Shown here piece by piece: positions 4,268-29,105 of a DNA stretch of 32,000 nt. The notes beneath the pieces were generated by a model that saw only the letters and a list, made by a program, of their open reading frames with translations, was not told the DNA's origin and did not search any database. A program made the position numbers and the translations under genes. The stretch comes from Prochlorococcus sp. MIT 0801 (lineage in GTDB: Bacteria > Cyanobacteriota > Cyanobacteriia > PCC-6307 > Cyanobiaceae), in NCBI RefSeq assembly GCF_000757865.1, contig NZ_CP007754.1, positions 990,001-1,022,000 on the forward strand, read 5' to 3'. Position 1 is the first letter of the stretch, and the number at the start of each line of letters is the position of its first letter.

Positions 4268-4624
4268 TTAACCTTCTCCTTCTGGAACTAAACGGAATCC
4301 CTTACGTCCCATCTTAATCTCAAAATTATCACCAGGCTTGAGATCTAAAAGAGCTGTATAGGCCTTTCCTATCAATAGGTTTCCATTTCCTTGAACGGTA
4401 GCCACATAACTTAGCTTTCTTCCACCTTTACCAATACCACCAGCACTTTCAGCTGCTAGGTTTACACCTTTAGCCTCTAGAAGTGCTTCGTAAAAAGCGG
4501 TGTAGTTAAGACGTTCTCCGCCTCCTTTCTTTGTGGAAACATATCCACAAGCTTTAACAAGATCAGATTTTGAGACATCTCCCAAGTCTTTGACCTTGGC
4601 TAATAAATCCTTACCAGTGAGCAT
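4268..4624 (-). CDS. cyanobacterial AbrB-like (SpoVT/AbrB domain) DNA-binding protein
   Basis: C-terminal LLIGKAYTALLDLKPGDNFEIKMGRKGFRLVP resembles the swapped-hairpin AbrB domain. The N-terminal half resembles the cyAbrB family. Confidence 0.8.
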   Translation of the reverse strand: MLTGKDLLAKVKDLGDVSKSDLVKACGYVSTKKGGGERLNYTAFYEALLEAKGVNLAAESAGGIGKGGRKLSYVATVQGNGNLLIGKAYTALLDLKPGDNFEIKMGRKGFRLVPEGEG

Positions 4625-5999: not shown

Positions 6000-6632
6000 T
6001 TATCTAGTTAAAGCCAAAGCCCAATTAGGAGAGGAAGAACTTACACCCAAAATATTCTTAGTCAAGGAGGAATTACATTTAGCGACAATCCCATTGGTAG
6101 GAAGATTAGAAAACAATTCATTATTGATCCATTGAGAATGCCATCTTTTAACCTGCATAGGATCATCAGTTCTTAGAGTTATAGGGACATCGAATCCCCA
6201 TTTTTGAAGTTGGGTCAAATCTGACAATTCATCACTATTTGAGCAAAAGATATGGAATGCTTTAAATAAAAGAGAGGTATTCTTATCAATTTGCGAGAAT
6301 GAGTTCGAAAGTAATTTCTCTAATGAAATCTTGGAATTAGCCGAAGGTGAGTATAAAACGCCCTCCAGCTCAACTTCAACTTTTAGAGAGTCATCAATAC
6401 TCAAAGGGATAGCATTGACATTCCTAATGTTTTCAATCATCACACGATCAACACGGGAATAGGCATCTACTAATTGGCCATATTTATATCGAAGGCCTAC
6501 TGCGAAGCCTACGATTTTGGGCTGCACAACCATGGTTGATCCCTCTGGTAACTTTGCCCACCAGCTAGAGAAACAATCCTTATCAAGTCCAAGTAATCTC
6601 ATATATATATCAATAGGAAGATGTAGAGCCAA
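6000..6632 (-). CDS. standalone NAD-dependent DNA ligase (LigA) adenylation-domain-like protein, degenerate motifs
   Basis: VVQPKIVGFAVGLRYKYGQLV aligns to LigA motif I (KxDG, here K-I-V-G). ELEGVLY aligns to EVRGEVF and NGIVAK to DGVVIK. KWGFDVP and PNWALAL also match LigA. No OB, Zn, HhH or BRCT regions. TTG at 6632; alternative ATG at 6602. Confidence 0.7.
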   Translation of the reverse strand: MALHLPIDIYMRLLGLDKDCFSSWWAKLPEGSTMVVQPKIVGFAVGLRYKYGQLVDAYSRVDRVMIENIRNVNAIPLSIDDSLKVEVELEGVLYSPSANSKISLEKLLSNSFSQIDKNTSLLFKAFHIFCSNSDELSDLTQLQKWGFDVPITLRTDDPMQVKRWHSQWINNELFSNLPTNGIVAKCNSSLTKNILGVSSSSPNWALALTR

Positions 6633-7002: not shown

Positions 7003-7257
7003 ATGACAATACAAGAGAAATATCCGGAAAATATTCCATGGGATTTAAAAACTATCGATCAAAGTAAATACAAATCTATTCATTGGATGCTATCCAAGGC
7101 AGACATCGTTTATACATTCACAAGAAGTCGTATAGACAATAATTATGTATACATACAAAAAAATGATGGTAAAAGAAAGGCATATAAAGAATATGAAGCT
7201 AGATTTACTTACCAAAGATTGTTTGATGAGGGATATTCGCTGGCTGCCTTTTCCTGA
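7003..7257 (+). CDS. conserved hypothetical, tandem paralog 1
   Basis: ORF track; shares EKYPE-x-PWDL and AR-x-TYQ-x-L-x-D-x-G with the next gene. Confidence 0.6.
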   Translation: MTIQEKYPENIPWDLKTIDQSKYKSIHWMLSKADIVYTFTRSRIDNNYVYIQKNDGKRKAYKEYEARFTYQRLFDEGYSLAAFS

Positions 7258-8411: not shown

Positions 8412-8522
8412 TTATGCCCAATCAGTATCTTCTAAGAGACATGAATAATCTGAGCAATCGAAGAAAGTGTCCTCATTAAGTAGATCGTCTACTTCTGCAC
8501 GGACCCAATAACTTAAAGACAT
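8412..8522 (-). CDS. hypothetical 36-aa acidic peptide at the tail of the hli operon
   Basis: Hand-called: MSLSYWVRAEVDDLLNEDTFFDCSDYSCLLEDTDWA. Its ATG lies 18 nt after the hli stop. Confidence 0.25.
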   Translation of the reverse strand: MSLSYWVRAEVDDLLNEDTFFDCSDYSCLLEDTDWA

Positions 8523-8540
8523 GTTAATAATAAAGTAAGT

Positions 8541-8666
8541 TTAAACGAAACCTGGAATAATCCAGCCTGTGAATCCGTAATTAACTACAGCTGCAAGAAG
8601 GCCCATCATCGCAAGACGACCATTCATTATTTCAGCTGTTTTCCAGTAGTTAGTTTCTTTGTTCAT
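8541..8666 (-). CDS. hli: high-light-inducible protein (HLIP), 41 aa
   Basis: MNKETNYWKTAEIMNGRLAMMGLLAAVVNYGFTGWIIPGFV carries the E-x2-NGR-x-AM-x-G chlorophyll-binding motif. The ORF-track N-terminal extension is read-through of the upstream gene. Confidence 0.9.
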   Translation of the reverse strand: MNKETNYWKTAEIMNGRLAMMGLLAAVVNYGFTGWIIPGFV

Positions 8667-8815
8667 TACACGAAACCTGGAATGATTTGTCCTGTTGTTG
8701 CGTAAGCACCAACTAAAGCAATGCATCCAAACAATGCTGCATAGCCATTAAGTCTTTCTGCAGTTACCTTTTCAGGATCAATGTTTCTACCGCTGCTGTT
8801 GTTTTGAGTAGTCAT
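8666..8815 (-). CDS. hli: high-light-inducible protein, 49 aa
   Basis: MTTQNNSSGRNIDPEKVTAERLNGYAALFGCIALVGAYATTGQIIPGFV. Its stop overlaps the next start as TAATG. Confidence 0.88.
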   Translation of the reverse strand: MTTQNNSSGRNIDPEKVTAERLNGYAALFGCIALVGAYATTGQIIPGFV

Positions 8816-8961
8816 TAGACAACACCTGGAATGATTTGACCTGTTGTTAGATATGCACCGATGAGTGCCCAGCATCCAACAAATGCTGCGTAGCCATTGA
8901 GTCTTTCAGCAATTACTTTGCCTTCTTCTACTCTTGGAGTTTCAGTAGTTTGGTTTTTCAT
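8815..8961 (-). CDS. hli: high-light-inducible protein, 48 aa
   Basis: Hand-called: MKNQTTETPRVEEGKVIAERLNGYAAFVGCWALIGAYLTTGQIIPGVV. TAATG overlaps at both ends. Confidence 0.85.
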   Translation of the reverse strand: MKNQTTETPRVEEGKVIAERLNGYAAFVGCWALIGAYLTTGQIIPGVV

Positions 8962-9080
8962 TAAACAACACCTGGGATAAGTTGACCGGTTGTTAGGTAG
9001 ATACCTGTTAGAAGAACGAATGCCATCATGGCTGGTCTGCCGATGCTTCTTTCTAGGATTGTTTTGTTAGATGGTTGCAT
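8961..9080 (-). CDS. hli: HLIP-like protein, 39 aa, degenerate motif
   Basis: Hand-called: MQPSNKTILERSIGRPAMMAFVLLTGIYLTTGQLIPGVV (E-x3-GR-x-AM). Confidence 0.7.
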   Translation of the reverse strand: MQPSNKTILERSIGRPAMMAFVLLTGIYLTTGQLIPGVV

Positions 9081-9100
9081 TGTTATTAGTAGTTATTGGT

Positions 9101-9208
9101 TTAGAAAATTCCAGGAATGATTTGACCTGTTGTTGCGTATGCACCGAAGGCAGCAACGAAGCCAAGCATTGCTGCCCAACCATTAAACTTTTCTGCTTCT
9201 GGAGTCAT
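9101..9208 (-). CDS. hli: high-light-inducible protein, 35 aa (first gene of the operon)
   Basis: Hand-called: MTPEAEKFNGWAAMLGFVAAFGAYATTGQIIPGIF. Confidence 0.85.
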   Translation of the reverse strand: MTPEAEKFNGWAAMLGFVAAFGAYATTGQIIPGIF

Positions 9209-9226
9209 GATGAAATCCGAGTTGTG

Positions 9227-9244
9227 TATGTGAATAAATGTAAA
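9227..9244 (-). promoter_or_regulatory. HLR1-like direct repeat (candidate RpaB site) upstream of the hli operon
   Basis: The minus strand reads TTTACATT-TA-TTCACATA. This is one mismatch from (G/T)TTACA(T/A)(T/A)-N2-repeat. It lies 18 nt upstream of the ATG at 9208. Confidence 0.45.
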
Positions 9245-9404
9245 TCAATTGTTAAACTACGTAAAGCCCCAAAAGTACGGCTTGCCTCATGAATGTGAAT
9301 TTCAGAAGCATCGGATACCAAAAACATTGTTTAAACAGTCACTTTGATTACATAAGTGGGAAATCAAACTAGAACAATATTCTCTTGTGAGAGGAAATGA
9401 CTAA

Positions 9405-9428
9405 TAAAAAAGTGTGACACTAGTGTCA
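9405..9428 (-). terminator. palindromic hairpin plus T-run after the 9463..9735 gene
   Basis: Perfect 14-bp palindrome TGACACTAGTGTCA at 9415..9428, followed on the minus strand by CACTTTTTTATT. Confidence 0.45.
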
Positions 9429-9462
9429 ATTCACATTATTGTTTTGTTTTCTTTATCAGATC

Positions 9463-9735
9463 TCAATTATAAAAAAAGTCGATTTCCTTAGTTTTTAGCC
9501 CATCCCAACCAGCCTTGATTAATCGTGTATTTAGAGTGTGTTGGTCAAAATGTTTGGATCCAGTTTTAACAATACGATTTCGCATTGATTTCTTAACTCC
9601 ACTTCTTTTTCGGGCATTTTCTTTATCCATGACTTCCCTGTAAAGGGTTAACATTTCTGATGGAATAGGACTTCCATCTAGATCTAATCCAGCTTGGATA
9701 GCGTTATCAATTGCATCTGGGCCAAAAAACTCCAC
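9463..9735 (-). CDS. conserved hypothetical protein (GTG start)
   Basis: ORF track; start codon GTG at 9735; basic central region. Confidence 0.55.
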   Translation of the reverse strand: MEFFGPDAIDNAIQAGLDLDGSPIPSEMLTLYREVMDKENARKRSGVKKSMRNRIVKTGSKHFDQHTLNTRLIKAGWDGLKTKEIDFFYN

Positions 9736-9826
9736 AAGAAAAAAGCGTAATGGACTTATTCTCCTCTCGCATCTACCGAATTCCTGAAATTCTTAGCAGA
9801 AATAATAAAAATTGTGAGTAATTTTT

Positions 9827-10459
9827 TTACTTTAAGCGATAAAAAACTGAAAGGTTATTGGCTGGCATATCGATGACGTTATCAAGTATGAATCCATTTT
9901 CAAATGCAAGATTGTTAACGTTTTCTAAGTTGCGAAGCCCCCAGAGCGGGTTTTGTTTTTTTAAGGATTGATCAAAATTTAAATTACTTTCTGAAGTTTG
10001 TTTCGCATTTCTGAAGAAAGGCCCATAGAGCATCAAAAAATTGCTTTGATCTAGATATTTCTTTGATTCTTCAAACAAAGATCTTGTACAACTCCATGGT
10101 GAGATATGAATCATATTTATGCAAACAATTCCTTTAATTAAAGCCCCAAGTCGATTGGTAATTGGCCAAGGACGCATGTCTACATCAAGATTAAGAGGAT
10201 CAGGCATTTTTGAATAAAGACCCTCATGCATAATCCAAGAATTAATACTTTTTCTATGTACTAATTCGGGGTCACTAGTTTGCCAGGTAATCGATGGAAA
10301 TTTTTTTTGGAAAAATACTCCGTGTTCACCACTACCACTAGCTATTTCTAAAATCAAGCTATTACGAGAAATATAATTGCTCAAAACTTCGGCGATAGAA
10401 TCTCGGTTCCTTGAGGTGGCCGGGAAAATTAGGCGATAGTCGGGATTTATATTGTCCAT
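9827..10459 (-). CDS. DUF938-family class I SAM-dependent methyltransferase
   Basis: PATSRNRDSIAEVL and LEIASGSGEHGVFFQKKFPSITWQTSDP match the DUF938 N-terminus and the SAM-binding G-x-G-x-G motif. Confidence 0.8.
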   Translation of the reverse strand: MDNINPDYRLIFPATSRNRDSIAEVLSNYISRNSLILEIASGSGEHGVFFQKKFPSITWQTSDPELVHRKSINSWIMHEGLYSKMPDPLNLDVDMRPWPITNRLGALIKGIVCINMIHISPWSCTRSLFEESKKYLDQSNFLMLYGPFFRNAKQTSESNLNFDQSLKKQNPLWGLRNLENVNNLAFENGFILDNVIDMPANNLSVFYRLK

Positions 10460-10722
10460 AATTTTTCAATAGTTAATTGGACTAATGAATCAGAATTATT
10501 TGGAGGTTTTTCCTTAGAAAAATCTTTAATAACAAAAATAATCATTATTATTAAAGGAGTTAGAAAAGCGGATGCAGCAACTGCTCCTATAATTCGTCTT
10601 GAATTTATTAAGGGCTTTTTAACTAATGGGTCACCGCAGAGACCACAAATCAAAACACCCTCATTGCTAGTTTTGTGAAACTGATAACGAGAAGAGCAGA
10701 AAGGGCAATAATATCGGCTCAT
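10447..10722 (-). CDS. zinc-ribbon membrane protein
   Basis: From ATG at 10722: MSRYYCPFCSSRY...ICGLCGDPL, then a TM helix. Its 3' end overlaps the DUF938 start by 13 nt. Confidence 0.55.
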   Translation of the reverse strand: MSRYYCPFCSSRYQFHKTSNEGVLICGLCGDPLVKKPLINSRRIIGAVAASAFLTPLIIMIIFVIKDFSKEKPPNNSDSLVQLTIEKLWTI

Positions 10723-10811
10723 TTCTGATCTTAAAAAACAAAATTTAACTATATTAAATATGCCTACCATTATAAAAAGCAAATTAATTTGATTAAATGT
10801 AGGACTGAAAG

Positions 10812-11498
10812 ATGAGAGAAGAGAATGATGTATTAAATCATCTTATAAGGAATCTTGAGAGAATATCTCCAGAAGATTCTATCTTTAATTACAAATCTGG
10901 AAGCAAAGCCTTCGTATCATTAGGACAAGGAAATATTAGTGAATGGCTGGAGACATTTCTTCCAAATACAAGAATAATTGTAGAACCAAAAATCATTGGA
11001 TCAATCATTGGCATTCAATATATAAATGGAGAATTAAACAAGGTCATAAATAAAAATGTTCAAGACATTACAGAAAGCGTAAGTTCTCTAAAAATTATTC
11101 CTAAAAGCCTACCGATTAAAAACAGACTAGAAATACAAGGTATTCTTTACAACGATAAAAATTTATCAAGAAGAAAAAATGAACCTGAATTTATAGAAAT
11201 ACAAAATTGGCAATCACAGTCTAATAGACTTAAATTCTGCGCTTTTCAAATATATCAATGCAATATTAATCATTTTCAAACACTTCAAGAGTTAAAGCAT
11301 CTAAATTTTGAAATTCCTCAAACTCATTTTACAAACTTCATTTCAGATATCGAAATCTATCTTCAATGTTGGAGAGAGGGTAAGTTATTTACAAGCTATC
11401 CAACAAATGGACTAGTATTAAAAATCAATTCAAGAAAATTGCAGAAGTATCTTGGAGAAAATAACCTATCAATACCTTGCGCATACGCCATAAATTAA
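10812..11498 (+). CDS. second standalone LigA adenylation-domain-like protein, degenerate motifs
   Basis: VEPKIIGSIIGIQYINGEL (K-I-I-G), EIQGILY and NGLVLK. Paralogous to 6000..6632. Confidence 0.7.
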   Translation: MREENDVLNHLIRNLERISPEDSIFNYKSGSKAFVSLGQGNISEWLETFLPNTRIIVEPKIIGSIIGIQYINGELNKVINKNVQDITESVSSLKIIPKSLPIKNRLEIQGILYNDKNLSRRKNEPEFIEIQNWQSQSNRLKFCAFQIYQCNINHFQTLQELKHLNFEIPQTHFTNFISDIEIYLQCWREGKLFTSYPTNGLVLKINSRKLQKYLGENNLSIPCAYAIN

Positions 11499-14169: not shown

Positions 14170-14855
14170 TTAAGTAATTATTCCTACACGGCTGATAGTG
14201 GTTTGTTCTTATATTTTTTGAACTTCTCAGGACAACCTTCTTTTTATACTGAGCTTTAGAAGGTTGTTTCTTTGAATAAAAAACGTCAGTGCTCCTCCCC
14301 AGAAGCCAATCAACCGATGACCAGTGCAATTGATTGCCTGACGTACACATATCCTAGATTTTCCTTTTCATCAATAGTTCTGTAGGACCGTACGTCTTAG
14401 GCAGGGAAACCGTAGAAAGAATAAACCTCTTTTAATTAGACATTTAAAAAGGGCCCGAGGGGGCCCTTTTCCTTTACCGATTCTTTGGAAGCTTCTGGAT
14501 ATTGGTGGCCTGGGGCCAAGTGTCTAGTAGAAAGGCTTTTTTACTCCGTTAGGGCACCTAAACGATGCAGAGGAGGTTCGACTGAATTGACGCACCTAAA
14601 TCATTGATCCTTGTCGCATCAGACGAATAGCCCACTTATTCTTTGAGAATGTTGGAGCAGGAACCAGAATTCAGTTCGCTTCTCTTAAATACTCAGGTGG
14701 AGTGTCGACCATCAATGGTGCCTCTGAGCTCAACAAACGTATCTTTGCTCTATTCGCACCTCAACGCAATCAGCCTTAATGCCCATTGCATTTCCACTAC
14801 ACCTGATCAAAAATAGTAAGTTTGGGGTCTAGCTAAGATCTAATTAATAAATCAA
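14170..14855. repeat. 686-bp direct repeat, copy A (non-coding, GC-enriched)
   Basis: Block-by-block comparison with 24756..25441 (offset 10586) found one mismatch (14845 T vs 25431 C). Identity ends sharply on both sides. Confidence 0.95.
14446..14475. terminator. GC-clamp hairpin with A-run and T-run flanks (bidirectional terminator-like) inside repeat copy A
   Basis: AAAAA-GGGCCC-GAGG-GGGCCC-TTTTCCTTT. The minus strand reads GGGCCC-CCTC-GGGCCC-TTTTTAAAT. Confidence 0.6.
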
Positions 14856-15757: not shown

Positions 15758-16261
15758 TTAACTTATCAAAGCAATTGCTTCTTTTAATTCGTTCGCATGA
15801 TTGATCTCATCTTGAGCAATTTCACGTATCCTCTGATCGTTTGGATTAACTGTTAGATACTTTGCATAAGTTTCATACGCATGCTCTTCAATTTTTATAT
15901 TGATATCGTATGCATTTGATGGAGAGAGTAAGTAATAAAAAACCATTACCCAGTAATAGAAGAGCACTAAATGCCTTGCAAGAAATCGATCAACCCAATA
16001 TCTATTGCCGCTTCGTGATTCCATCTCTTCTAAATGCTCCGTCTCATTGATTGCTTGGTAAAAATGAGCCTTCATGAGCTTGTTGCTTAAAGGAGTCTTT
16101 AGGCCAAGCGACTCTTGTAAATGCAAAACTGATAAGAATGCAAAATAAGGTGCTCTAGCAATTACCTCAAGAACCCAAAAACGTTGAATCGGTCTACCTT
16201 CGTAGATCCGATCAAGAATGTTTACACTGAAATTTAAAACAAATGAATTAATACCTTTCAT
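15758..16261 (-). CDS. ptox: plastoquinol terminal oxidase (PTOX, alternative-oxidase-like di-iron protein)
   Basis: Di-iron carboxylate motifs: LEVIARAP, NETEHLEEM, EEHAYETY, DEINHANEL. Size 167 aa. Confidence 0.9.
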   Translation of the reverse strand: MKGINSFVLNFSVNILDRIYEGRPIQRFWVLEVIARAPYFAFLSVLHLQESLGLKTPLSNKLMKAHFYQAINETEHLEEMESRSGNRYWVDRFLARHLVLFYYWVMVFYYLLSPSNAYDINIKIEEHAYETYAKYLTVNPNDQRIREIAQDEINHANELKEAIALIS

Positions 16262-18233: not shown

Positions 18234-18530
18234 TTAAAATATGCCAGGAATAATTTGTCCAGTAGTGATATAAGCGCCTAGTAAAGCAATCATTCCGATC
18301 ATTGCCCAACGGCCATTGGTCTTTTCCGCTTCTTCAGGATAGCTGGAATAGTTTTCAACTAATTGAGTTTGTACTTGGGTAGCAAACATGTTTTGCTTGC
18401 CATATTCAGTAATGATCTGGTTAGAAGCAGAACTGTAAGCAGGGATTCCTGTTGGATCAACAGATTGTCCTTCTGATTGATTATCAGTTGGATCTATTGA
18501 TTGATCAGAAACTGGGTTACTAGAAGTCAT
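18234..18530 (-). CDS. hli: high-light-inducible protein with a long N-terminal extension, 98 aa
   Basis: From ATG at 18530. The C-terminus EEAEKTNGRWAMIGMIALLGAYITTGQIIPGIF is a canonical HLIP. The N-terminus contains DQSIDPTDNQSEGQSVDPTG. Confidence 0.85.
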   Translation of the reverse strand: MTSSNPVSDQSIDPTDNQSEGQSVDPTGIPAYSSASNQIITEYGKQNMFATQVQTQLVENYSSYPEEAEKTNGRWAMIGMIALLGAYITTGQIIPGIF

Positions 18531-18538
18531 ATAAGAAC

Positions 18539-18646
18539 CTAAAAAATGCCTGGAATAATTTGACCAGTAGTTGCATAAGCACCGAAAGCAGCAATAAAGC
18601 CGATCATTGCCATCCAACCATTAAACTTTTCTGCTTCTGGAGTCAC
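18539..18646 (-). CDS. hli: high-light-inducible protein, 35 aa, GTG start
   Basis: (GTG)TPEAEKFNGWMAMIGFIAAFGAYATTGQIIPGIF. No in-frame ATG would keep the E-x2-NG motif. Paralog of 9101..9208. Confidence 0.75.
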   Translation of the reverse strand: MTPEAEKFNGWMAMIGFIAAFGAYATTGQIIPGIF

Positions 18647-18672
18647 GAGATTAAACTCAAATAATGCGCATG

Positions 18673-18701
18673 AATGTAAAGGAAAAGTAAAGGAATGTAA
18701 A
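18673..18701 (-). promoter_or_regulatory. HLR1-like triple direct repeat upstream of the hli pair
   Basis: The minus strand reads TTTACATT-CC-TTTACTTT-TCC-TTTACATT, ending 26 nt before the GTG at 18646. Confidence 0.55.
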
Positions 18702-18811
18702 GGGGTCACCCGTACACAGCAAAAGTTATCAGGGGTATTAGGTGAAGCAATATTTTTTATCCACGTTCTAAATAACAATTCCACTAACTTTGTTGAACTT
18801 AATTCAAATAG

Positions 18812-19638: not shown

Positions 19639-19797
19639 TCATGAAAGTCTTATTTGATTTTCAATCGAATAAGCATTGCTTGTGCAGGCCTCATCACCTG
19701 TAACTTGAGAAACAGCAATAACCAGAAGACTTAGAGAACCAACCGCTAGAGAAATTGTTCTAATAGCACTTGCTTTCTTAGAGATTTTCTTGCTCAT
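19639..19797 (-). CDS. hypothetical single-TM protein
   Basis: ORF track 19639..19839. The internal ATG at 19797 gives MSKKISKKASAIRTISLAVGSLSLLVIAV. Confidence 0.4.
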   Translation of the reverse strand: MSKKISKKASAIRTISLAVGSLSLLVIAVSQVTGDEACTSNAYSIENQIRLS

Positions 19798-19946
19798 ATC
19801 AAAAAAAATTGATGTAATAAGAATATGATTACTATCCAAGCATAAAGAGTATCCATTGATACCTGCTAGAAATAATTACCTAAAAATTATTAGAACAATT
19901 CTGAATAGAGCTAAATCAATTGAAAACCAGATTTAAATTGATTGCT

Positions 19947-20276
19947 TTATTTACAAGCTTGCGATGGTTGTTGCGAACTTTCTTTTAACAGTTCAATCCA
20001 ATCTTGCAAAGAATTTAATGAGTCAATATTCAATTGGTAATAAACCCATCTACCAGTTTGCCTATCGGTAATCAAACCTGCATCTTTTAAAACTTTTAAA
20101 TGAAAAGATATTTTCGATTGCGCCAATCCAATTTCATTAATCAAATCACAAACACATCGTTCTCCTCCTGAAAGAGACTCAATGATTTGCAATCGCAATG
20201 GATCAGATAAAGCTTTTAGCAATTTCCTGGCCACTGCATTTTCAAGAACTACTTCGCTCTTTGTCGCTGTGGCCAT
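19947..20276 (-). CDS. arsR: ArsR/SmtB-family metalloregulator
   Basis: Winged-helix core LRLQIIESLSGGERCVCDLINEIGLAQSKISFHLKVLKDAGLI, with the CVC metalloid-binding motif. ATG at 20276. Confidence 0.9.
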   Translation of the reverse strand: MATATKSEVVLENAVARKLLKALSDPLRLQIIESLSGGERCVCDLINEIGLAQSKISFHLKVLKDAGLITDRQTGRWVYYQLNIDSLNSLQDWIELLKESSQQPSQACK

Positions 20277-20347
20277 CACAGAAGAAAAAATATAATCACA
20301 TGATAAAACAAACCGCAGAAAAGGCTTGCATCGATAAACCTCTATAC

Positions 20348-20365
20348 ATCAATATAAATTGATAT
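20348..20365. promoter_or_regulatory. palindromic operator-like motif in the arsR/gap divergent intergenic region
   Basis: ATCAAT-ATAA-ATTGAT-AT, a 6-4-6 inverted repeat. A further ATTGAT lies at 20384..20389 inside TATATTGATT. Confidence 0.5.
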
Positions 20366-20415: not shown

Positions 20416-21441
20416 ATGCGAATCGGTATTAATGGTTTCGGTCGAATAGGACGACTTGTTCTAAGAGCGCTCTGGGGTAGAGAAAATATCGAGATTACAC
20501 ATATCAACGATCCATTGGGTGATGCAAAGGGAGCTGCGCATTTACTTGAATTTGATTCAGTACATGGTCGTTGGAACAAAGCAATAAGCAACGACCAAAA
20601 CAACCTGAGTATTGAAGGTCACCCGATATCTTTTGCAAAGGAAAGTGATTTCACAAAAGTTCCATGGGATAAGACAGGTATAGAGCTAATTCTCGAATGT
20701 TCAGGAAAATTCAAAACCCCTCAAACATTAAATCCTTACTTCGATACTCTTGGGATGAAAAGAGTTGTCGTTGCATGTCCAGTAAAAGGAGAAATCCAGG
20801 GAGAGGATGCTCTAAATATCGTCTACGGTATTAATCATGATTTATATGAGCCCAATAAACATCGCTTAGTAACAGCTGCATCCTGCACGACTAATTGCTT
20901 GGCTCCCGTTGTGAAAGTTGTTAATCAAGCTTTTGGTATCAAGCATGGAAGCATCACAACACACCATGACCTAACAAATACACAGGTAATCGTTGATTCA
21001 TTTAAATCAGATTTAAGAAGAGCAAGGAGCGGATCACAAAGCTTAATTCCAACAACAACAGGATCAGCAAAAGCGATAGGGATGATATTCCCTGAATTAC
21101 AAGGTAAATTAAATGGTCATGCAGTTCGAGTTCCTCTCCTCAATGGATCTTTAACTGATGCTGTATTTGAATTAGAAAAAGAGGTCACGCAAGAAGAAGT
21201 CAATCATGTGTTCAAAGAAGCTTCAGAAGGAGAACTAAAAGGAATACTTGGTTACGAAGAAAAACCACTTGTATCAATCGATTATGTCAATGACTCGAGA
21301 AGTTCAATTATTGATGCGCCCTCAACCATGGTGATCAACAAAACTCAACTGAAAGTCTATATTTGGTATGACAATGAATGGGGGTATAGCTGTCGAATGG
21401 CTGATCTCGTATCACATGTAATAAAGCTAGAAAAAGAATAA
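20416..21441 (+). CDS. gap: glyceraldehyde-3-phosphate dehydrogenase-like protein (ars-associated GAPDH)
   Basis: [12 protein letters not shown]-binding N-terminus and the catalytic [10 protein letters not shown] motif. 341 aa, followed 10 nt later by arsJ. Confidence 0.92.
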
Positions 21442-21451
21442 AAATAAAAAC

Positions 21452-22714
21452 ATGCGATTAACGGCATTGCAACAATATGGAATCGTAACGACCAACTATT
21501 GGGCATTCACACTGACAGATGGTGCTCTAAGAATGCTAGTGATTTTTCACTTTCATAGCCTTGGATATACAACATTAGAAATTGCATTCTTATTCCTTTT
21601 TTATGAGTTCTTTGGCGTCATCACTAATCTCTATGGAGGTTGGATAGGAGCAAGATATGGATTACGTCTAACACTGTGGGTAGGAACTCTTTTACAAATC
21701 GGCGCCCTATTGATGTTGATACCCGTTTCAAGTGGTTGGTCGAAACTTTTGAGTGTCATTTATGTCATGGTTGCTCAAGCGATTAGTGGCATAGCAAAAG
21801 ATCTCAATAAGATGAGTGCTAAAAGTGCCATCAAAACTGTCGTTCCAGGCTCATCAGAAGAAGATGGTGGAAATAATCAATTATTTAAATGGGTAGCCAT
21901 CTTAACTGGTTCAAAAAATGCACTCAAAGGAGTTGGCTTCTTTCTTGGTGGACTTTTGCTTACAAGTTTTGGATTTAATAAAGCAGTTGAATTAATGGCT
22001 ATCGGTTTAGGTCTGTCATTTCTAATGACATTAATTTTGCCTGGAGATATTGGAAAGATGAAAAACAAACCAATCTTTAAAGACTTATTTTCTAAATCTC
22101 AAGGGATCAATGTCCTCTCTTTTGCACGCTTTTTTCTCTTTGGGGCAAGAGACGTATGGTTCGTCGTTGCACTACCTGTTTTTCTTGAAACGTATCTAAA
22201 TTGGAATTTTTCTGAGATTGGAGCTTTTCTAGGATTGTGGGTTATTGGTTATGGTTTTATTCAAGCGTTTGCGCCGTCTTTAAGAAATTTATGGGGAAAT
22301 AAAACAAGCCCAGGAGTTTCTTCTGTTCAATTCTGGAGCGCTGCGTTAACTGCAATTCCAGCGCTAATAGCAATAGCACTATGGCGACAAAGCAATCCAG
22401 AAACAGCAATTACAGCTGGATTGATATTATTTGGGTTCATATTTGCAATGAACTCATCAATACATTCATATATGGTTCTTGCTTATACGGACAAGGAAAA
22501 CGTGAGTCTAAACGTCGGCTTCTATTACATGGCAAATGCGGCAGGGAGACTGATTGGTACTCTCCTATCAGGAGTTTTATTCATGATTGGAGCTAATGCC
22601 TCTATAGGAATGCAACTATGTTTATGGTGCTCAAGCCTATTTGTATTTATCTCATTGTTGACTAGTTTACGACTACCTCCAGTATCAAATACAAAAGCTA
22701 TAAAAAATTCCTAA
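21452..22714 (+). CDS. arsJ: ArsJ-like MFS permease (organoarsenical efflux)
   Basis: 420 aa, about 11-12 hydrophobic segments. The position directly after an ars-linked GAPDH and divergent from arsR fits the ArsJ arrangement. Confidence 0.8.
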   Translation: MRLTALQQYGIVTTNYWAFTLTDGALRMLVIFHFHSLGYTTLEIAFLFLFYEFFGVITNLYGGWIGARYGLRLTLWVGTLLQIGALLMLIPVSSGWSKLLSVIYVMVAQAISGIAKDLNKMSAKSAIKTVVPGSSEEDGGNNQLFKWVAILTGSKNALKGVGFFLGGLLLTSFGFNKAVELMAIGLGLSFLMTLILPGDIGKMKNKPIFKDLFSKSQGINVLSFARFFLFGARDVWFVVALPVFLETYLNWNFSEIGAFLGLWVIGYGFIQAFAPSLRNLWGNKTSPGVSSVQFWSAALTAIPALIAIALWRQSNPETAITAGLILFGFIFAMNSSIHSYMVLAYTDKENVSLNVGFYYMANAAGRLIGTLLSGVLFMIGANASIGMQLCLWCSSLFVFISLLTSLRLPPVSNTKAIKNS

Positions 22715-22935: not shown

Positions 22936-23007
22936 TGAATCTTTTTTTTCATATTAAAGATTTTTTTCAGCTTAAGTTAGGAAGTGACTGGCTAGCAAAA
23001 AAGAAAT

Positions 23008-23037
23008 TAAAAAGGAGGCTATTGCCTCCTTTTTAAT
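23008..23037. terminator. bidirectional rho-independent terminator after pstS
   Basis: AAAAAGGAGGC-TATT-GCCTCCTTTTTAA. The stem is 23013..23019 / 23024..23030. Confidence 0.65.
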
Positions 23038-23052
23038 TTATAAGGAATAAAT

Positions 23053-24024
23053 TCACTTACCAATACGCTTTACAGCAGCGCGAGACTTGGAAAGAATATC
23101 ACCTTTTAGAGGAACAAAGCCAAGAGAAGGAGCCTTAGCCTGGGCTTTATCACTAAGTAGGTAGTTAAGTGAATCTCTAATGGCATCAGTGTTTCTACCA
23201 TTACCAGTTTCGTAAGCAAGAATCCATGTAAGGGTTGCGATTGGGTATGCACCCTTGGCCTTAGGGTTAGGGTTATTACCGGCTAGATTTTTATCTAGTT
23301 GTATTCCATTAAGAGCAATAGCACCAGCCTCAGTAGTTGGCTGTAAAAACTCTCCTGATAAATTTTGGAGAGCGGCTGCTTTGATTTCACCTCTAATATA
23401 TGACTGGTTTACATAACCAATTGCACCAGGAGTGTTACGAATAACGCCAGCAACACCAGCATTACCTTTACCACCAACACCAGCAGGCCAGGCGACAGAT
23501 TTACCTGTTCCTAGAGTCCATGTCTTAGAGAAAGCCTGCATGGAATTTGTAAAAGCCTTCGTAGTGCCTGAACCATCAGAACGATGAGCCCAAGTTAGTT
23601 TTCCTTCAGGGCAACCAACCTCTTTCCAGTTTGAAATTTTACCCATAGCAACACGAACAGCTTGCTCTTGAGTAAGTTTAAGATCGCAATCGTAGTTATA
23701 ACCAAAAGCAATAGTGCCACCAACCATTGGGATTTGAACTAATCCCCGCGTAACTTTTGCAATATCTGTTGCTTTCATCGGATCATCAGACGCACCGAAA
23801 TTAACGGTTTCATCAATGAAAGCTTTACGGCCAGAACCTGAACCAACAGCTTGATAGTTAACACGAGGTCCACGCTCTTTAGCTAAGTCAGAGAACCATC
23901 GAGTGTAGATTTTAGCGGGAAAAGAGGCTCCAGCTCCGCTGAGTCGAGCACCCGCAAAGGCACTTCCACCTGAGCCAAGAATAATTAAAGAGGAGAGGAC
24001 AAGACTCTTCTTAGCAAAGCTCAT
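23053..24024 (-). CDS. pstS: phosphate ABC transporter periplasmic phosphate-binding protein PstS
   Basis: GAGASFPAKIY, AVGSGSG and SDGSGTT motifs. I chose the ATG at 24024 (MSFAKKSLVLSSLIILGSGGSAFA signal peptide). The ORF stays open to 24078. Confidence 0.92.
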   Translation of the reverse strand: MSFAKKSLVLSSLIILGSGGSAFAGARLSGAGASFPAKIYTRWFSDLAKERGPRVNYQAVGSGSGRKAFIDETVNFGASDDPMKATDIAKVTRGLVQIPMVGGTIAFGYNYDCDLKLTQEQAVRVAMGKISNWKEVGCPEGKLTWAHRSDGSGTTKAFTNSMQAFSKTWTLGTGKSVAWPAGVGGKGNAGVAGVIRNTPGAIGYVNQSYIRGEIKAAALQNLSGEFLQPTTEAGAIALNGIQLDKNLAGNNPNPKAKGAYPIATLTWILAYETGNGRNTDAIRDSLNYLLSDKAQAKAPSLGFVPLKGDILSKSRAAVKRIGK

Positions 24025-24080
24025 CAAAGGTCTGCGACGTAAAAGCAATGAAAGCATAGGACGTGAAGGCTCTGACATTG

Positions 24081-24116
24081 ATCAATATTTATTGATATAA
24101 TCAATATAGCTTGATA
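24081..24116. promoter_or_regulatory. array of four alternating ATCAAT/ATTGAT half-sites upstream of pstS
   Basis: ATCAAT-ATTT-ATTGAT-ATA-ATCAAT-ATAGC-TTGAT(A). Half-site starts are spaced 10, 9 and 10 bp apart. The first 18 nt match 20348..20365 at 16 of 18 positions. Confidence 0.5.
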
Positions 24117-24497
24117 CAGGGCTTACGGCAAAAAAACTAATTCAAAATAAACATATCTGTTTGATGGAGCGAAGCGGTATATTTATGAGCAATATTAAGG
24201 CTGATGCTTGGATGAAAACCAATCATTAGATCAATCAAGCATTTAATAAGAAGTTGAAAAACAAAGTAAAATATCTTCTAATAATTCTAGTCTTAATGAT
24301 CGGCACATCTATATCTATTAGCCAATACAAAAACACATATCCAGATCCTAGTGAGAGAAAAGATTTATCTGTTAAAGGAATCTTTCTAGATTAAAAATGT
24401 TATGTTTACAAAAATATAAAACATAAATAAGCTTTAAGTGTATAAATTTAGACTAAAATAAATAAAGAGTGAAGGCTTGAAGAAAAGAGGAAACTAA

Positions 24498-24728
24498 ATG
24501 AGATGGCCACCGAATGCAGCTTGGACCTCAGCCGTAAAAAGAGAAGGTTATCGACATTTTGAAGTTAAAAGCTATGGAGGCAAAAAAGATGAACGGTGGG
24601 TAGAACTATTTCCAGTTAACAACAACGAAATTCTTATAAGAGTTCCATGGTCGGAATTAAAAACATATTCAAAGTGGACGAGTGGATGGCTTCAGTTGCC
24701 AAAAGATGACGATTGCGATGGCAACTAA
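24498..24728 (+). CDS. conserved hypothetical protein
   Basis: ORF track; ATG start. It ends 27 nt before repeat copy B. Confidence 0.6.
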   Translation: MRWPPNAAWTSAVKREGYRHFEVKSYGGKKDERWVELFPVNNNEILIRVPWSELKTYSKWTSGWLQLPKDDDCDGN

Positions 24729-24755: not shown

Positions 24756-25441
24756 TTAAGTAATTATTCCTACACGGCTGATAGTGGTTTGTTCTTATAT
24801 TTTTTGAACTTCTCAGGACAACCTTCTTTTTATACTGAGCTTTAGAAGGTTGTTTCTTTGAATAAAAAACGTCAGTGCTCCTCCCCAGAAGCCAATCAAC
24901 CGATGACCAGTGCAATTGATTGCCTGACGTACACATATCCTAGATTTTCCTTTTCATCAATAGTTCTGTAGGACCGTACGTCTTAGGCAGGGAAACCGTA
25001 GAAAGAATAAACCTCTTTTAATTAGACATTTAAAAAGGGCCCGAGGGGGCCCTTTTCCTTTACCGATTCTTTGGAAGCTTCTGGATATTGGTGGCCTGGG
25101 GCCAAGTGTCTAGTAGAAAGGCTTTTTTACTCCGTTAGGGCACCTAAACGATGCAGAGGAGGTTCGACTGAATTGACGCACCTAAATCATTGATCCTTGT
25201 CGCATCAGACGAATAGCCCACTTATTCTTTGAGAATGTTGGAGCAGGAACCAGAATTCAGTTCGCTTCTCTTAAATACTCAGGTGGAGTGTCGACCATCA
25301 ATGGTGCCTCTGAGCTCAACAAACGTATCTTTGCTCTATTCGCACCTCAACGCAATCAGCCTTAATGCCCATTGCATTTCCACTACACCTGATCAAAAAT
25401 AGTAAGTTTGGGGTCTAGCTAAGATCTAATCAATAAATCAA
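24756..25441. repeat. 686-bp direct repeat, copy B
   Basis: Same sequence as 14170..14855 (685/686). The GC-clamp hairpin lies at 25037..25052. Confidence 0.95.
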
Positions 25442-28226: not shown

Positions 28227-28508
28227 ATGGATTGGAAGACATCACTAGATTGGTATTGCTCAGGTAACATTCTTGAAAAAGAAGATGTCGACCTTTTAGA
28301 GGAACACTATCAAGAGATAATCAATGAAAGCGATTCGAATTTCTCCCCAGAAATAGCTCCAAAACATATTTGTAACCAAACAAATATTCCAGAGGGAAGT
28401 TCTTGGATTACAGCAGTTGCAGTAATACTTGATCGATTAAATCCAGTAAAAACAGGTAAACCAAGAAGTTTATTAGTAGATCAATTAAGAAGAAAGCAAA
28501 GCAGTTAA
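28227..28508 (+). CDS. hypothetical protein, paralog of 31569..31865
   Basis: ORF track; shares IC-x7-8-GS-x2-I-x3-A-x-ILD-x-L-x-P-x-K with the other copy. Confidence 0.55.
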   Translation: MDWKTSLDWYCSGNILEKEDVDLLEEHYQEIINESDSNFSPEIAPKHICNQTNIPEGSSWITAVAVILDRLNPVKTGKPRSLLVDQLRRKQSS

Positions 28509-28895
28509 ACCCTCTTTATACAAAAGAGTTGAACATAAAAGACCCGAAGCCCAACAAAGTCCTCTAGCAGGAGGAATATCGCCAACATATGCACCTATAT
28601 AGATAAACCTCACAATTGGGTGAACCCACGCAGCTATTACGGCCACAGGAGACACAACACCGGCAATCAGACATAGCAAACATGCAGGAGCGTGAAGAGT
28701 GATACTCTCCCAGCAATTTTGATGACACCAGACAGCTCTTTTACCAAAATCAGGAAGTTCATCAAACAAAGCTCTTGGCGCACTCATATTCTCAGCTGAA
28801 TAACCAGCCTTGACTCGGCCATACGTTAGTGGTCCAATTGAAATCAAGACAACAACGGCAGACAGGCATAGGCTCCAAGCAAAAGCTGTTTCCAT
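28485..28895 (-). CDS. MAPEG-family-like membrane protein
   Basis: About 136 aa with 3-4 TM helices. KRAVWCHQNCWESITLHAP resembles the MAPEG R-x3-H-x-N-x2-E region. ATG at 28895. Confidence 0.55.
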   Translation of the reverse strand: METAFAWSLCLSAVVVLISIGPLTYGRVKAGYSAENMSAPRALFDELPDFGKRAVWCHQNCWESITLHAPACLLCLIAGVVSPVAVIAAWVHPIVRFIYIGAYVGDIPPARGLCWASGLLCSTLLYKEGLTALLSS

Positions 28896-29105
28896 GGAAT
28901 TCACAAATATATTTTGAGCCTAAGTGAGGCAGATTCAAATTGCGGTTTAAAAGGTGTGTTGAAGATTGCTTTTAGAACAAGTTGTACAAACCAAGTTTTC
29001 AAAAAGATGATAAAAACACAATATTTAGTTCATAAACTTGTTATTCTCTAGGTGTTATAGAGACTTCAGCTCGACTAAAACATCCATTATTAAAATAATC
29101 CAACC

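Follow-up and report, generated by a model that had tools for sequence, protein, structure and literature searches.

Prochlorococcus is the most abundant phototroph of the phosphate-poor ocean, and expression of pstS, the gene for its periplasmic phosphate-binding protein, is widely used as a marker of phosphate stress in these cells. Many strains and wild populations have been reported to lack phoBR, and in the literature that we searched we found no account of how Prochlorococcus without these genes regulates pstS. A stretch of 32,000 nucleotides from the genome of Prochlorococcus sp. MIT 0801 (the whole of which is called the window below) poses this question in a specific form. The same palindromic motif is found upstream of pstS and between the divergent genes arsR and gap, and it may be asked which protein reads the two sites, and what control of phosphate uptake by the repressor encoded beside one of them would mean for the cell.

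Genes and palindromes of the window

The window is AT-rich (27-40% GC in 2-kb windows), and its closest relative among the loci that we fetched is that of the Prochlorococcus single-cell genome AG-402-P18 (locus L001), the ArsJ of which is 98% identical. On the minus strand, positions 19947-20276 encode ArsR, a repressor of the ArsR/SmtB family with a CVC arsenite-type site (Pfam HTH_5, 2.9e-18; NCBIfam NF033788, metalloregulator ArsR/SmtB, 98 bits against a cut-off of 55). Divergent from it on the plus strand are gap (gap3/gap1; 20416-21441), for the ArsJ-associated glyceraldehyde-3-phosphate dehydrogenase (NCBIfam NF033735, 551 bits against a cut-off of 450; Pfam Gp_dh_N and Gp_dh_C), and arsJ (21452-22714), for the organoarsenical efflux permease of the MFS type (NCBIfam NF033734, 574 bits against a cut-off of 400). 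The pstS gene lies on the minus strand at 23053-24024, convergent with arsJ (NCBIfam TIGR00975, 230 bits against a cut-off of 205), and starts with the ATG at 24024, not at 24078. A terminator-like hairpin of 16 pairs (23004-23039) separates the two convergent genes, and pstS therefore needs a promoter of its own. Downstream of arsR, a small open reading frame on the minus strand (19639-19797) encodes 52 amino acids with a hydrophobic core and is a candidate extra member of the regulon; its counterpart in AG-402-P18 is 96% identical, and a Pfam search matched it to no family.

The window as a whole resembles a hypervariable genomic island and holds an exact direct duplication of 300 nt (14170-14469 and 24756-25055, 10.6 kb apart), both copies of which are matched by AG-402-P18 over about 690 bp, and five copies of a 109-nt repeat (8667-9210 and 18235-18648). 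The repeats at 18235 and 18540 lie within open reading frames (18234-18617 and 18539-18784) that both end in the high-light-inducible-protein motif GQIIPGIF. Also encoded are an AbrB-like regulator (4268-4624), two open reading frames with a DNA-ligase adenylation domain (6000-6632 and 10812-11498), a member of the alternative-oxidase family, AOX (15758-16261), and a MAPEG protein (28485-28904).

The original prediction had singled out two 18-mers, ATCAATATTTATTGATAT at 24081-24098 upstream of pstS and ATCAATATAAATTGATAT at 20348-20365 between arsR and gap, as 6-4-6 inverted repeats that agree at 16 of 18 positions. The letters are as claimed and both copies of the 6-4-6 pattern are real (two exact copies in the window against 0.05 expected, a number reached in none of 100 shuffles), but comparison with relatives places the conserved core at 5-6-5, ATCAA-N6-TTGAT. 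The window holds four exact copies of this core where 0.12 would be expected, which is not the background rate of AT-rich DNA, and none of 100 shuffles reached four. One copy is the perfect box in the divergent arsR/gap promoter region (ATCAATATAAATTGAT, 20348-20363), and two stand upstream of pstS at an offset of 19 bp, the proximal box ATCAATATTTATTGAT at 24081-24096 and the distal box ATCAATATAGCTTGAT at 24100-24115. The fourth, ATCAAAAAAAATTGAT at 19798-19813, abuts the ATG of the 52-residue open reading frame; the prediction had reported no further full copy of the palindrome, which is true of the exact 6-4-6 pattern but overlooked this copy of the core. All four are intergenic and promoter-proximal. 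In the sense of the gene, the pstS promoter reads ATCAA-gctata-TTGAT-tat-ATCAA-taaata-TTGAT, with half-sites starting at 24081, 24091, 24100, and 24110, the spacing of 10, 9, and 10 bp first described.

Significance is confined to the exact copies of the core. Once one or two mismatches are allowed, the counts are those of chance (8 found for 4.5 expected, and 12 for 6.9), and the one-mismatch sites at 1845, 10778, 26129, and 29594 were dropped as occurring at the chance rate. A degenerate distal box, ATCGATAAACCTCTAT (20330-20345), lies 2 bp from the perfect arsR/gap box with 7 of 10 core positions; alone it is not significant, and it sits at the 2-bp linker and 18-bp offset of the tandem boxes in most relatives. 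The fourth box and its open reading frame are kept in AG-402-P18 (box at 4348-4363, with a different spacer) and were not found in other lineages. The 10-mer TATATTGATT, put forward as a further element common to the two promoters, is present at both loci but only marginally unexpected (0.29 copies expected and two present, a count reached by 4 of 100 shuffles); at pstS it falls within the distal box, its TATA part at gap is not kept in AG-402-P18, and it was not retained as an independent element.

The mismatch counts and the marginal 10-mer are what might be seen if AT-rich palindromes had simply coincided by chance in a genome of 34% GC. That explanation is at odds with the shuffle controls for the exact copies, with their uniformly intergenic, promoter-proximal positions, and with their preservation at orthologous promoters, including those of high-GC genomes; we consider it refuted by conservation and shuffling, and give it almost no credence.

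Likeness to a footprinted ArsR operator

The DNase I footprint of ArsR on arsBHC in Synechocystis sp. PCC 6803 comprises ATCAA(N)6TTGAT in two tandem 17-bp direct repeats, as quoted in a passage of PMC4585019 that cites Lopez-Maury 2003. By that passage, the core bound by the Synechocystis repressor (Sll1957) is identical to that of the window, and in both cases there are two adjacent inverted repeats, each of about 17-19 bp. The repressor is likewise an ArsR/SmtB protein with a CVC motif. The two systems differ in their targets, which are acr3-arsH-arsC in Synechocystis and gap-arsJ with pstS here, and in the place of arsR, which is unlinked there but adjacent and divergent in the window. Tandem copies are found at both promoters of the window, with both boxes exact at pstS and one exact plus one degenerate at arsR/gap; the linker is 3 bp in the pstS pair versus 2 bp at ars promoters.

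The nearest solved structures to the ArsR of the window are those of ArsR and SmtB proteins. Its CVC motif lies in helix alpha-3 (reading ERCVCDL) and, together with the C-terminal Cys, is kept in at least 90% of 62 homologues, among which the recognition helix QS..S.H...L is near-invariant, as QSK(I/L)S(F/Y)HLK. To judge from the protein sequence, the CVC motif, the C-terminal Cys, and the near-invariant helix fit an arsenite-sensing repressor of conserved DNA specificity.

Comparison with other genomes links the box to arsR. Among 80 loci gathered by means of ArsJ, 48 have arsR divergent from gap, and the intergenic region contains an exact box in 46 of them, from Prochlorococcus, Synechococcus, and Cyanobium; the remaining two have one mismatch. 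This count takes in Cyanobium and Synechococcus genomes at 60-70% GC, in which an AT-rich 16-mer stands out. Most of the divergent arsR-gap loci have two boxes, at an offset of 18 bp. A box is also found directly upstream of gap in several loci from distant cyanobacteria, and in Nostoc, Calothrix, and Anabaena (L071, L077, and L080) it precedes a PstS-like gene that heads a gap-arsJ(-acr3) string below arsR. In metagenome contigs, arsR and tandem boxes are followed by acr3-arsH-arsC, which is the operon type of Synechocystis.

A gene-blind scan of metagenomes for the tandem pattern alone gave at least 125 instances, 104 with a 2-bp linker and 21 with a 3-bp linker. Among the matches listed, 73 of the 104 pairs with the shorter linker lie no more than 400 bp from a homologue of the ArsR of the window, and 8 of the 21 with the longer linker stand, on as many contigs, beside a Prochlorococcus-like pstS. 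Other pairs with a 3-bp linker, in the upstream region of an nrdD-like gene of a low-GC organism and in plain tandem repeats, are unrelated and were set aside. The arsR-associated pairs include soil bacteria of more than 70% GC, and the putative ATCAA-N6-TTGAT operator is far more widespread than the cyanobacteria. Viral contigs were also scanned for the tandem box, with the pstS of cyanophages in mind, and gave five matches with no ars or pst genes. In the metagenome loci L088, L098, L126, L133, and about 40 others, from high-GC soil bacteria (GC 0.67-0.75), the tandem pair adjoins long ArsR-like genes (250-290 aa) whose recognition helix, QNLVSYHLGKLR, differs from that of cyanobacteria.

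Promoter classes of pstS

A usable region upstream of pstS is present in 19 Prochlorococcus-type loci (GC 0.30-0.42, the window included), and three classes of promoter can be distinguished among them, with pstS being sampled only near arsJ since the loci were collected by means of that gene. Tandem ArsR boxes at a 19-bp offset are found in 13 of the 19 (the window, L003-L007, L041-L044, L048, which is strain MIT 9322, L049, and L055), a single ArsR box abutting a Pho box in one (AG-402-P18), and direct repeats of the Pho-box type with no ArsR box in five (L014 and L017-L020). The motif is conserved at orthologous promoters of pstS in several Prochlorococcus lineages as well as at those of the ars genes, as the original prediction would require. 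L179, one of the eight metagenome contigs with a 3-bp linker beside a Prochlorococcus-like pstS, has a PstS 99% identical to that of the window. In ten high-GC Synechococcus and Cyanobium loci of the same survey no ArsR box was found at pstS, and several of these have Pho boxes of the CTTAACC type, judged by eye. Five metagenome loci of freshwater-type picocyanobacteria (L174, L194, L152, L205, and L186; GC 0.61-0.67) have the order arsJ, gap, tandem boxes, arsR, pstS, phoB, pstC, pstA, and their pstS carries Pho boxes and no ArsR box.

The PstS of the window is 78-91% identical to the PstS of other Prochlorococcus loci, whichever class of promoter precedes the gene. The similarity is about equal behind ArsR-box promoters (78-84%) and behind Pho boxes (about 81%), and therefore the same ortholog has switched promoter type; in close strains, this one gene occurs with a Pho box only, with a composite of Pho and ArsR boxes, and with a pure ArsR tandem. 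No Pho box, defined as at least two 8-bp direct repeats resembling CTTAACCT with a period of 11 bp and placed before the -10 element, lies within 250 bp upstream of pstS in the window. Control by PhoB/SphR through Pho boxes, as in Prochlorococcus and Synechococcus, has the same target gene and the same position in the promoter as the tandem ArsR boxes. Pho boxes consist of direct repeats of 8 bp (TTAAGAA or CTTAACC) that recur every 11 bp, replace the -35 element, and activate, whereas the site in the window is an inverted repeat and a predicted repressor operator. A phosphate-stress regulator had originally been offered as an alternative reader of the palindromes; the sites of PhoB are direct repeats, and they are the very sites that the ArsR boxes replace, which argues against it.

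An alignment of 21 tandem-box pstS promoters, from at least three diverged lineages, shows that the four half-sites and the TAT linker are kept in at least 90%, while the spacers and flanks drift. Conserved half-sites with drifting spacers are the signature of a protein-binding site, here a putative one, and not of an RNA stem or of base composition. Each box could in principle fold into a short A-U-rich hairpin, and in the high-light loci L044 and L047 a perfect box followed by a T-run just past the arsR stop looks terminator-like, as would suit attenuators or stability elements in RNA. Such stems would have only 5 bp of A/U-rich pairing, however, the half-sites are conserved unchanged with no co-variation, and the arsR/gap box lies between divergent genes whose transcripts both start outward from it, all of which makes RNA hairpins a highly improbable account of the palindromes.

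The box past arsR in L044 and L047 lies in the spacer to pstC. In the high-light loci L044 and L047-L049, and in the Pho-box locus L014, pstC-pstA-pstB follows immediately downstream of arsR on the same strand (1795-4850 in L044), with a spacer of 80 bp in the former and of about 400 bp with Pho boxes in L014. An arsR-pstCAB co-transcript is possible in the high-light loci. The spacer box, of which L048 and L049 have only a degenerate form, may be terminator-like and was not counted as evidence.

The local history of the pstS promoter can be followed in the closest relative. The window and the AG-402-P18 locus are collinear at 93-95% identity, apart from one segment. In AG-402-P18 this segment (8503-10732) holds the 5' end of pstS, the composite promoter, a truncated phoR (152 aa, with the HisKA domain only), and an intact phoB (248 aa) that has an ArsR box of its own at 10452, just upstream of the -10-like TAATAC. 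Its counterpart in the window (23948-24489, about 540 bp) holds the tandem-box promoter, with no Pho box and no phoBR, and a tblastn search of the whole window detected neither a PhoB-like nor a CRP-like gene. To judge from these two sequences, phoBR appears to have been gained or lost recently, together with an exchange of the promoter.

The boxes also overlap promoter-like elements. The best match for gap is TTGATA-16-TATATT, in which the -35 element is the right half of the arsR/gap box (TTGATA) and TATATTGATT supplies the -10 element. In the promoter-like match for pstS in the window, the distal box overlaps a -10-like TATATT. In low-light lineages, TTGAT(T/C) of the distal box would serve as the -35 element, the proximal box fills the 18-bp spacer, and TAnnnT follows directly; high-light arsR/gap promoters are laid out in the same way, with TTGATA-18-TATAAT. 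In the high-light lineage, a good extended -10 element (TGcTATAAA) is found about 40 bp downstream of the pstS boxes, and the boxes may there precede the promoter instead of lying on it. The best promoter-like match of the pstS region in the window is on the plus strand and points away from pstS (24072-24101, CTGACA-18-TATAAT with an upstream TG, 11 of 12 positions). It is overlapped by both pstS boxes and leads to tiny open reading frames and then to a DUF2389 gene (24498-24728), which has a -10-like element of its own upstream; the -35 element of the plus-strand site is not kept in L179.

Overlaps of this kind raise the suggestion that the pstS boxes are not regulatory, being instead AT-rich promoter scaffolding or relics of promoter swaps within the island. 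TTGAT resembles TTGACA and the promoter scan takes box halves as -35 elements, while the island recombines and the segment that differs between the window and AG-402-P18 was replaced exactly at the pstS promoter. Scaffolding or relics would not account for the 21 aligned promoters, in which every half-site is kept, even ATCAA, which has no function as a promoter element, while flanks and spacers drift and the linker stays fixed at 3 bp. We therefore regard boxes devoid of regulatory function as quite improbable.

Phosphate regulators, proposed control by ArsR, and known systems

The boxes are not limited to ars genes and pstS. An ArsR box stands upstream of phoB in L004 and L007 as well as in AG-402-P18, and in the first two the composite GGTTAAG(A/G)ATAG-ATCAAGAAAnnTTGAT would also drive phoB, beside a pstS with tandem boxes. 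CRP-family, PtrA-like genes of L003 and L004 have an ArsR box 30-37 bp upstream (7121-7136 and 8885-8900, respectively); that of L003 lies in the middle of a perfect 30-bp palindrome, TCATCATATCAATAATTATTGATATGATGA. The predicted ArsR box runs throughout the phosphate-acquisition island of Prochlorococcus.

These positions bear on a further possibility, namely that PtrA, a phosphate-responsive regulator of the CRP family, binds the pstS boxes, either by itself or in competition with ArsR. CRP-family sites have the same 5-6-5 geometry, boxes upstream of PtrA-like genes and of phoB would fit autoregulation among phosphate regulators, and the genes that bear boxes largely coincide with the phosphate-stress island. 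Nevertheless, a CRP-family gene was detected only in L003 and L004; the window has none, nor do the high-light tandem-box loci, and the boxes extend to Nostoc, Calothrix, Anabaena, and freshwater picocyanobacteria. PtrA is not known outside marine picocyanobacteria. The order of half-sites, ATCAA...TTGAT, is the reverse of that in FNR/CRP sites (TGTGA-N6-TCACA or TTGAT-N4-ATCAA), and it is the spacing within the box that is fixed, at 6, while the gap from TTGAT to ATCAA between boxes varies from 2 to 3 bp. The pairs found by pattern alone track arsR, in the proportion given above for the matches listed, and the binder named in the footprint passage on Synechocystis is ArsR. Binding by PtrA is, on balance, unlikely.

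By contrast, the footprint as quoted for Synechocystis, the association of boxes with arsR in the divergent loci and in the gene-blind pairs, and the conserved copy at pstS support the original proposal of an ArsR/SmtB-type operator common to pstS and arsR/gap, and of one regulator, possibly the adjacent ArsR, that would act on both. The motif is far commoner than chance allows, is conserved, accompanies arsR, and takes the place of Pho boxes; on these grounds we consider it likely that the palindromes are operators of the adjacent ArsR, through which gap-arsJ and pstS would be repressed and arsenite would relieve repression. The way in which this ArsR would bind, the sign of its effect, the inducer, and the use to the cell can be pictured as follows. 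When arsenite is absent, ArsR dimers would occupy the arsR/gap box, the two boxes over the core promoter of pstS, and the box at the small open reading frame, and in occluding these promoters would hold down arsR, gap-arsJ, and pstS. Arsenate would enter through the phosphate transporter (Pst), above all when phosphate is scarce, and be reduced to arsenite, which would bind at the CVC cysteines and release ArsR. The pair of GAPDH and ArsJ, which would extrude arsenate, and the phosphate-selective PstS would then rise jointly. In Synechocystis, the footprint on arsBHC reportedly covers the core promoter, and Sb(III) and As(III) are said to release the repressor.

With neither a Pho box in the promoter nor phoBR alongside, ArsR would therefore be the only recognisable regulatory input to pstS in this strain, as judged within the 32-kb window; phoBR, or a second pstS under PhoB control, is possible elsewhere in the genome. 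In MED4-type strains, genes of this island have been reported to respond to phosphate starvation or to PhoB, and control may therefore be dual. A bolder idea, which we offer tentatively and with more doubt than confidence, is that ArsR and not PhoB is the main switch of high-affinity phosphate uptake in several Prochlorococcus lineages, with intracellular arsenite as a proxy for a high ratio of arsenate to phosphate, and hence for phosphate scarcity, and with ArsR placed above the whole phosphate-stress hierarchy. This would explain the regulation of pstS in strains without phoBR, and boxes on phoB and ptrA in some lineages suggest that the link to arsenic may extend to the phosphate regulators themselves. 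If ArsR does control pstS, transcripts of this gene in the field would report in part on exposure to arsenic, or on the ratio of arsenate to phosphate, and not on phosphate alone. The findings suggest a testable route to pstS control that is independent of PhoBR and, if the reading is true, the system would be a clean natural example of promoter rewiring, in which one ortholog has either an activator site or a repressor operator in near-identical contexts.

Several parts of this picture are already known, namely the Synechocystis operator as quoted above, the association of arsR with pstS, gap3, and arsJ, and the control of pstS and phoB by an ArsR in Agrobacterium. Current accounts of phosphate regulation in Prochlorococcus name PhoBR and PtrA only, and field studies list arsR merely as a 'putative arsenate stress transcriptional regulator' within the phosphate gene set. 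In the literature searched, we found no description of ArsR operators on canonical Prochlorococcus pstS, phoB, or ptrA, nor of ArsR boxes alternating with Pho boxes between close relatives; the predicted boxes on canonical Prochlorococcus pstS appear to be unreported so far.

The closest functional parallel is in Agrobacterium tumefaciens 5A, in which ArsR1 represses pstS1 and phoB1, with support from EMSA. The repressor is encoded beside ars genes, as in the window, and it acts on a neighbouring pstS and on a phoB, both of which arsenite induces independently of the classical phosphate-starvation response; phoB likewise has an ArsR box in three of the Prochlorococcus loci described above. The operator is a different one, for which the authors found no repeat of the 12-2-12 type, and pstS1 is an extra copy in the ars island, with a separate pst2/pho locus carrying the true phosphate response. 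In Prochlorococcus, by contrast, the PstS concerned is about 80% identical to that driven by Pho boxes. Among cyanobacteria, an arsR-pstS/sphX-gap3-arsJ cluster has been annotated in Nodularia, and a review predicted from gene context that pstS, gap3, and the MFS gene are co-regulated by arsenic. The ars clusters of Nostoc, Nodularia, and Anabaena have the same set of genes as the window. Their binding-protein gene is only distantly paralogous (37% identity in L065) and stands first in the ars operon, whereas the pstS of the window is of the canonical type, is convergent with arsJ, and has a promoter of its own.
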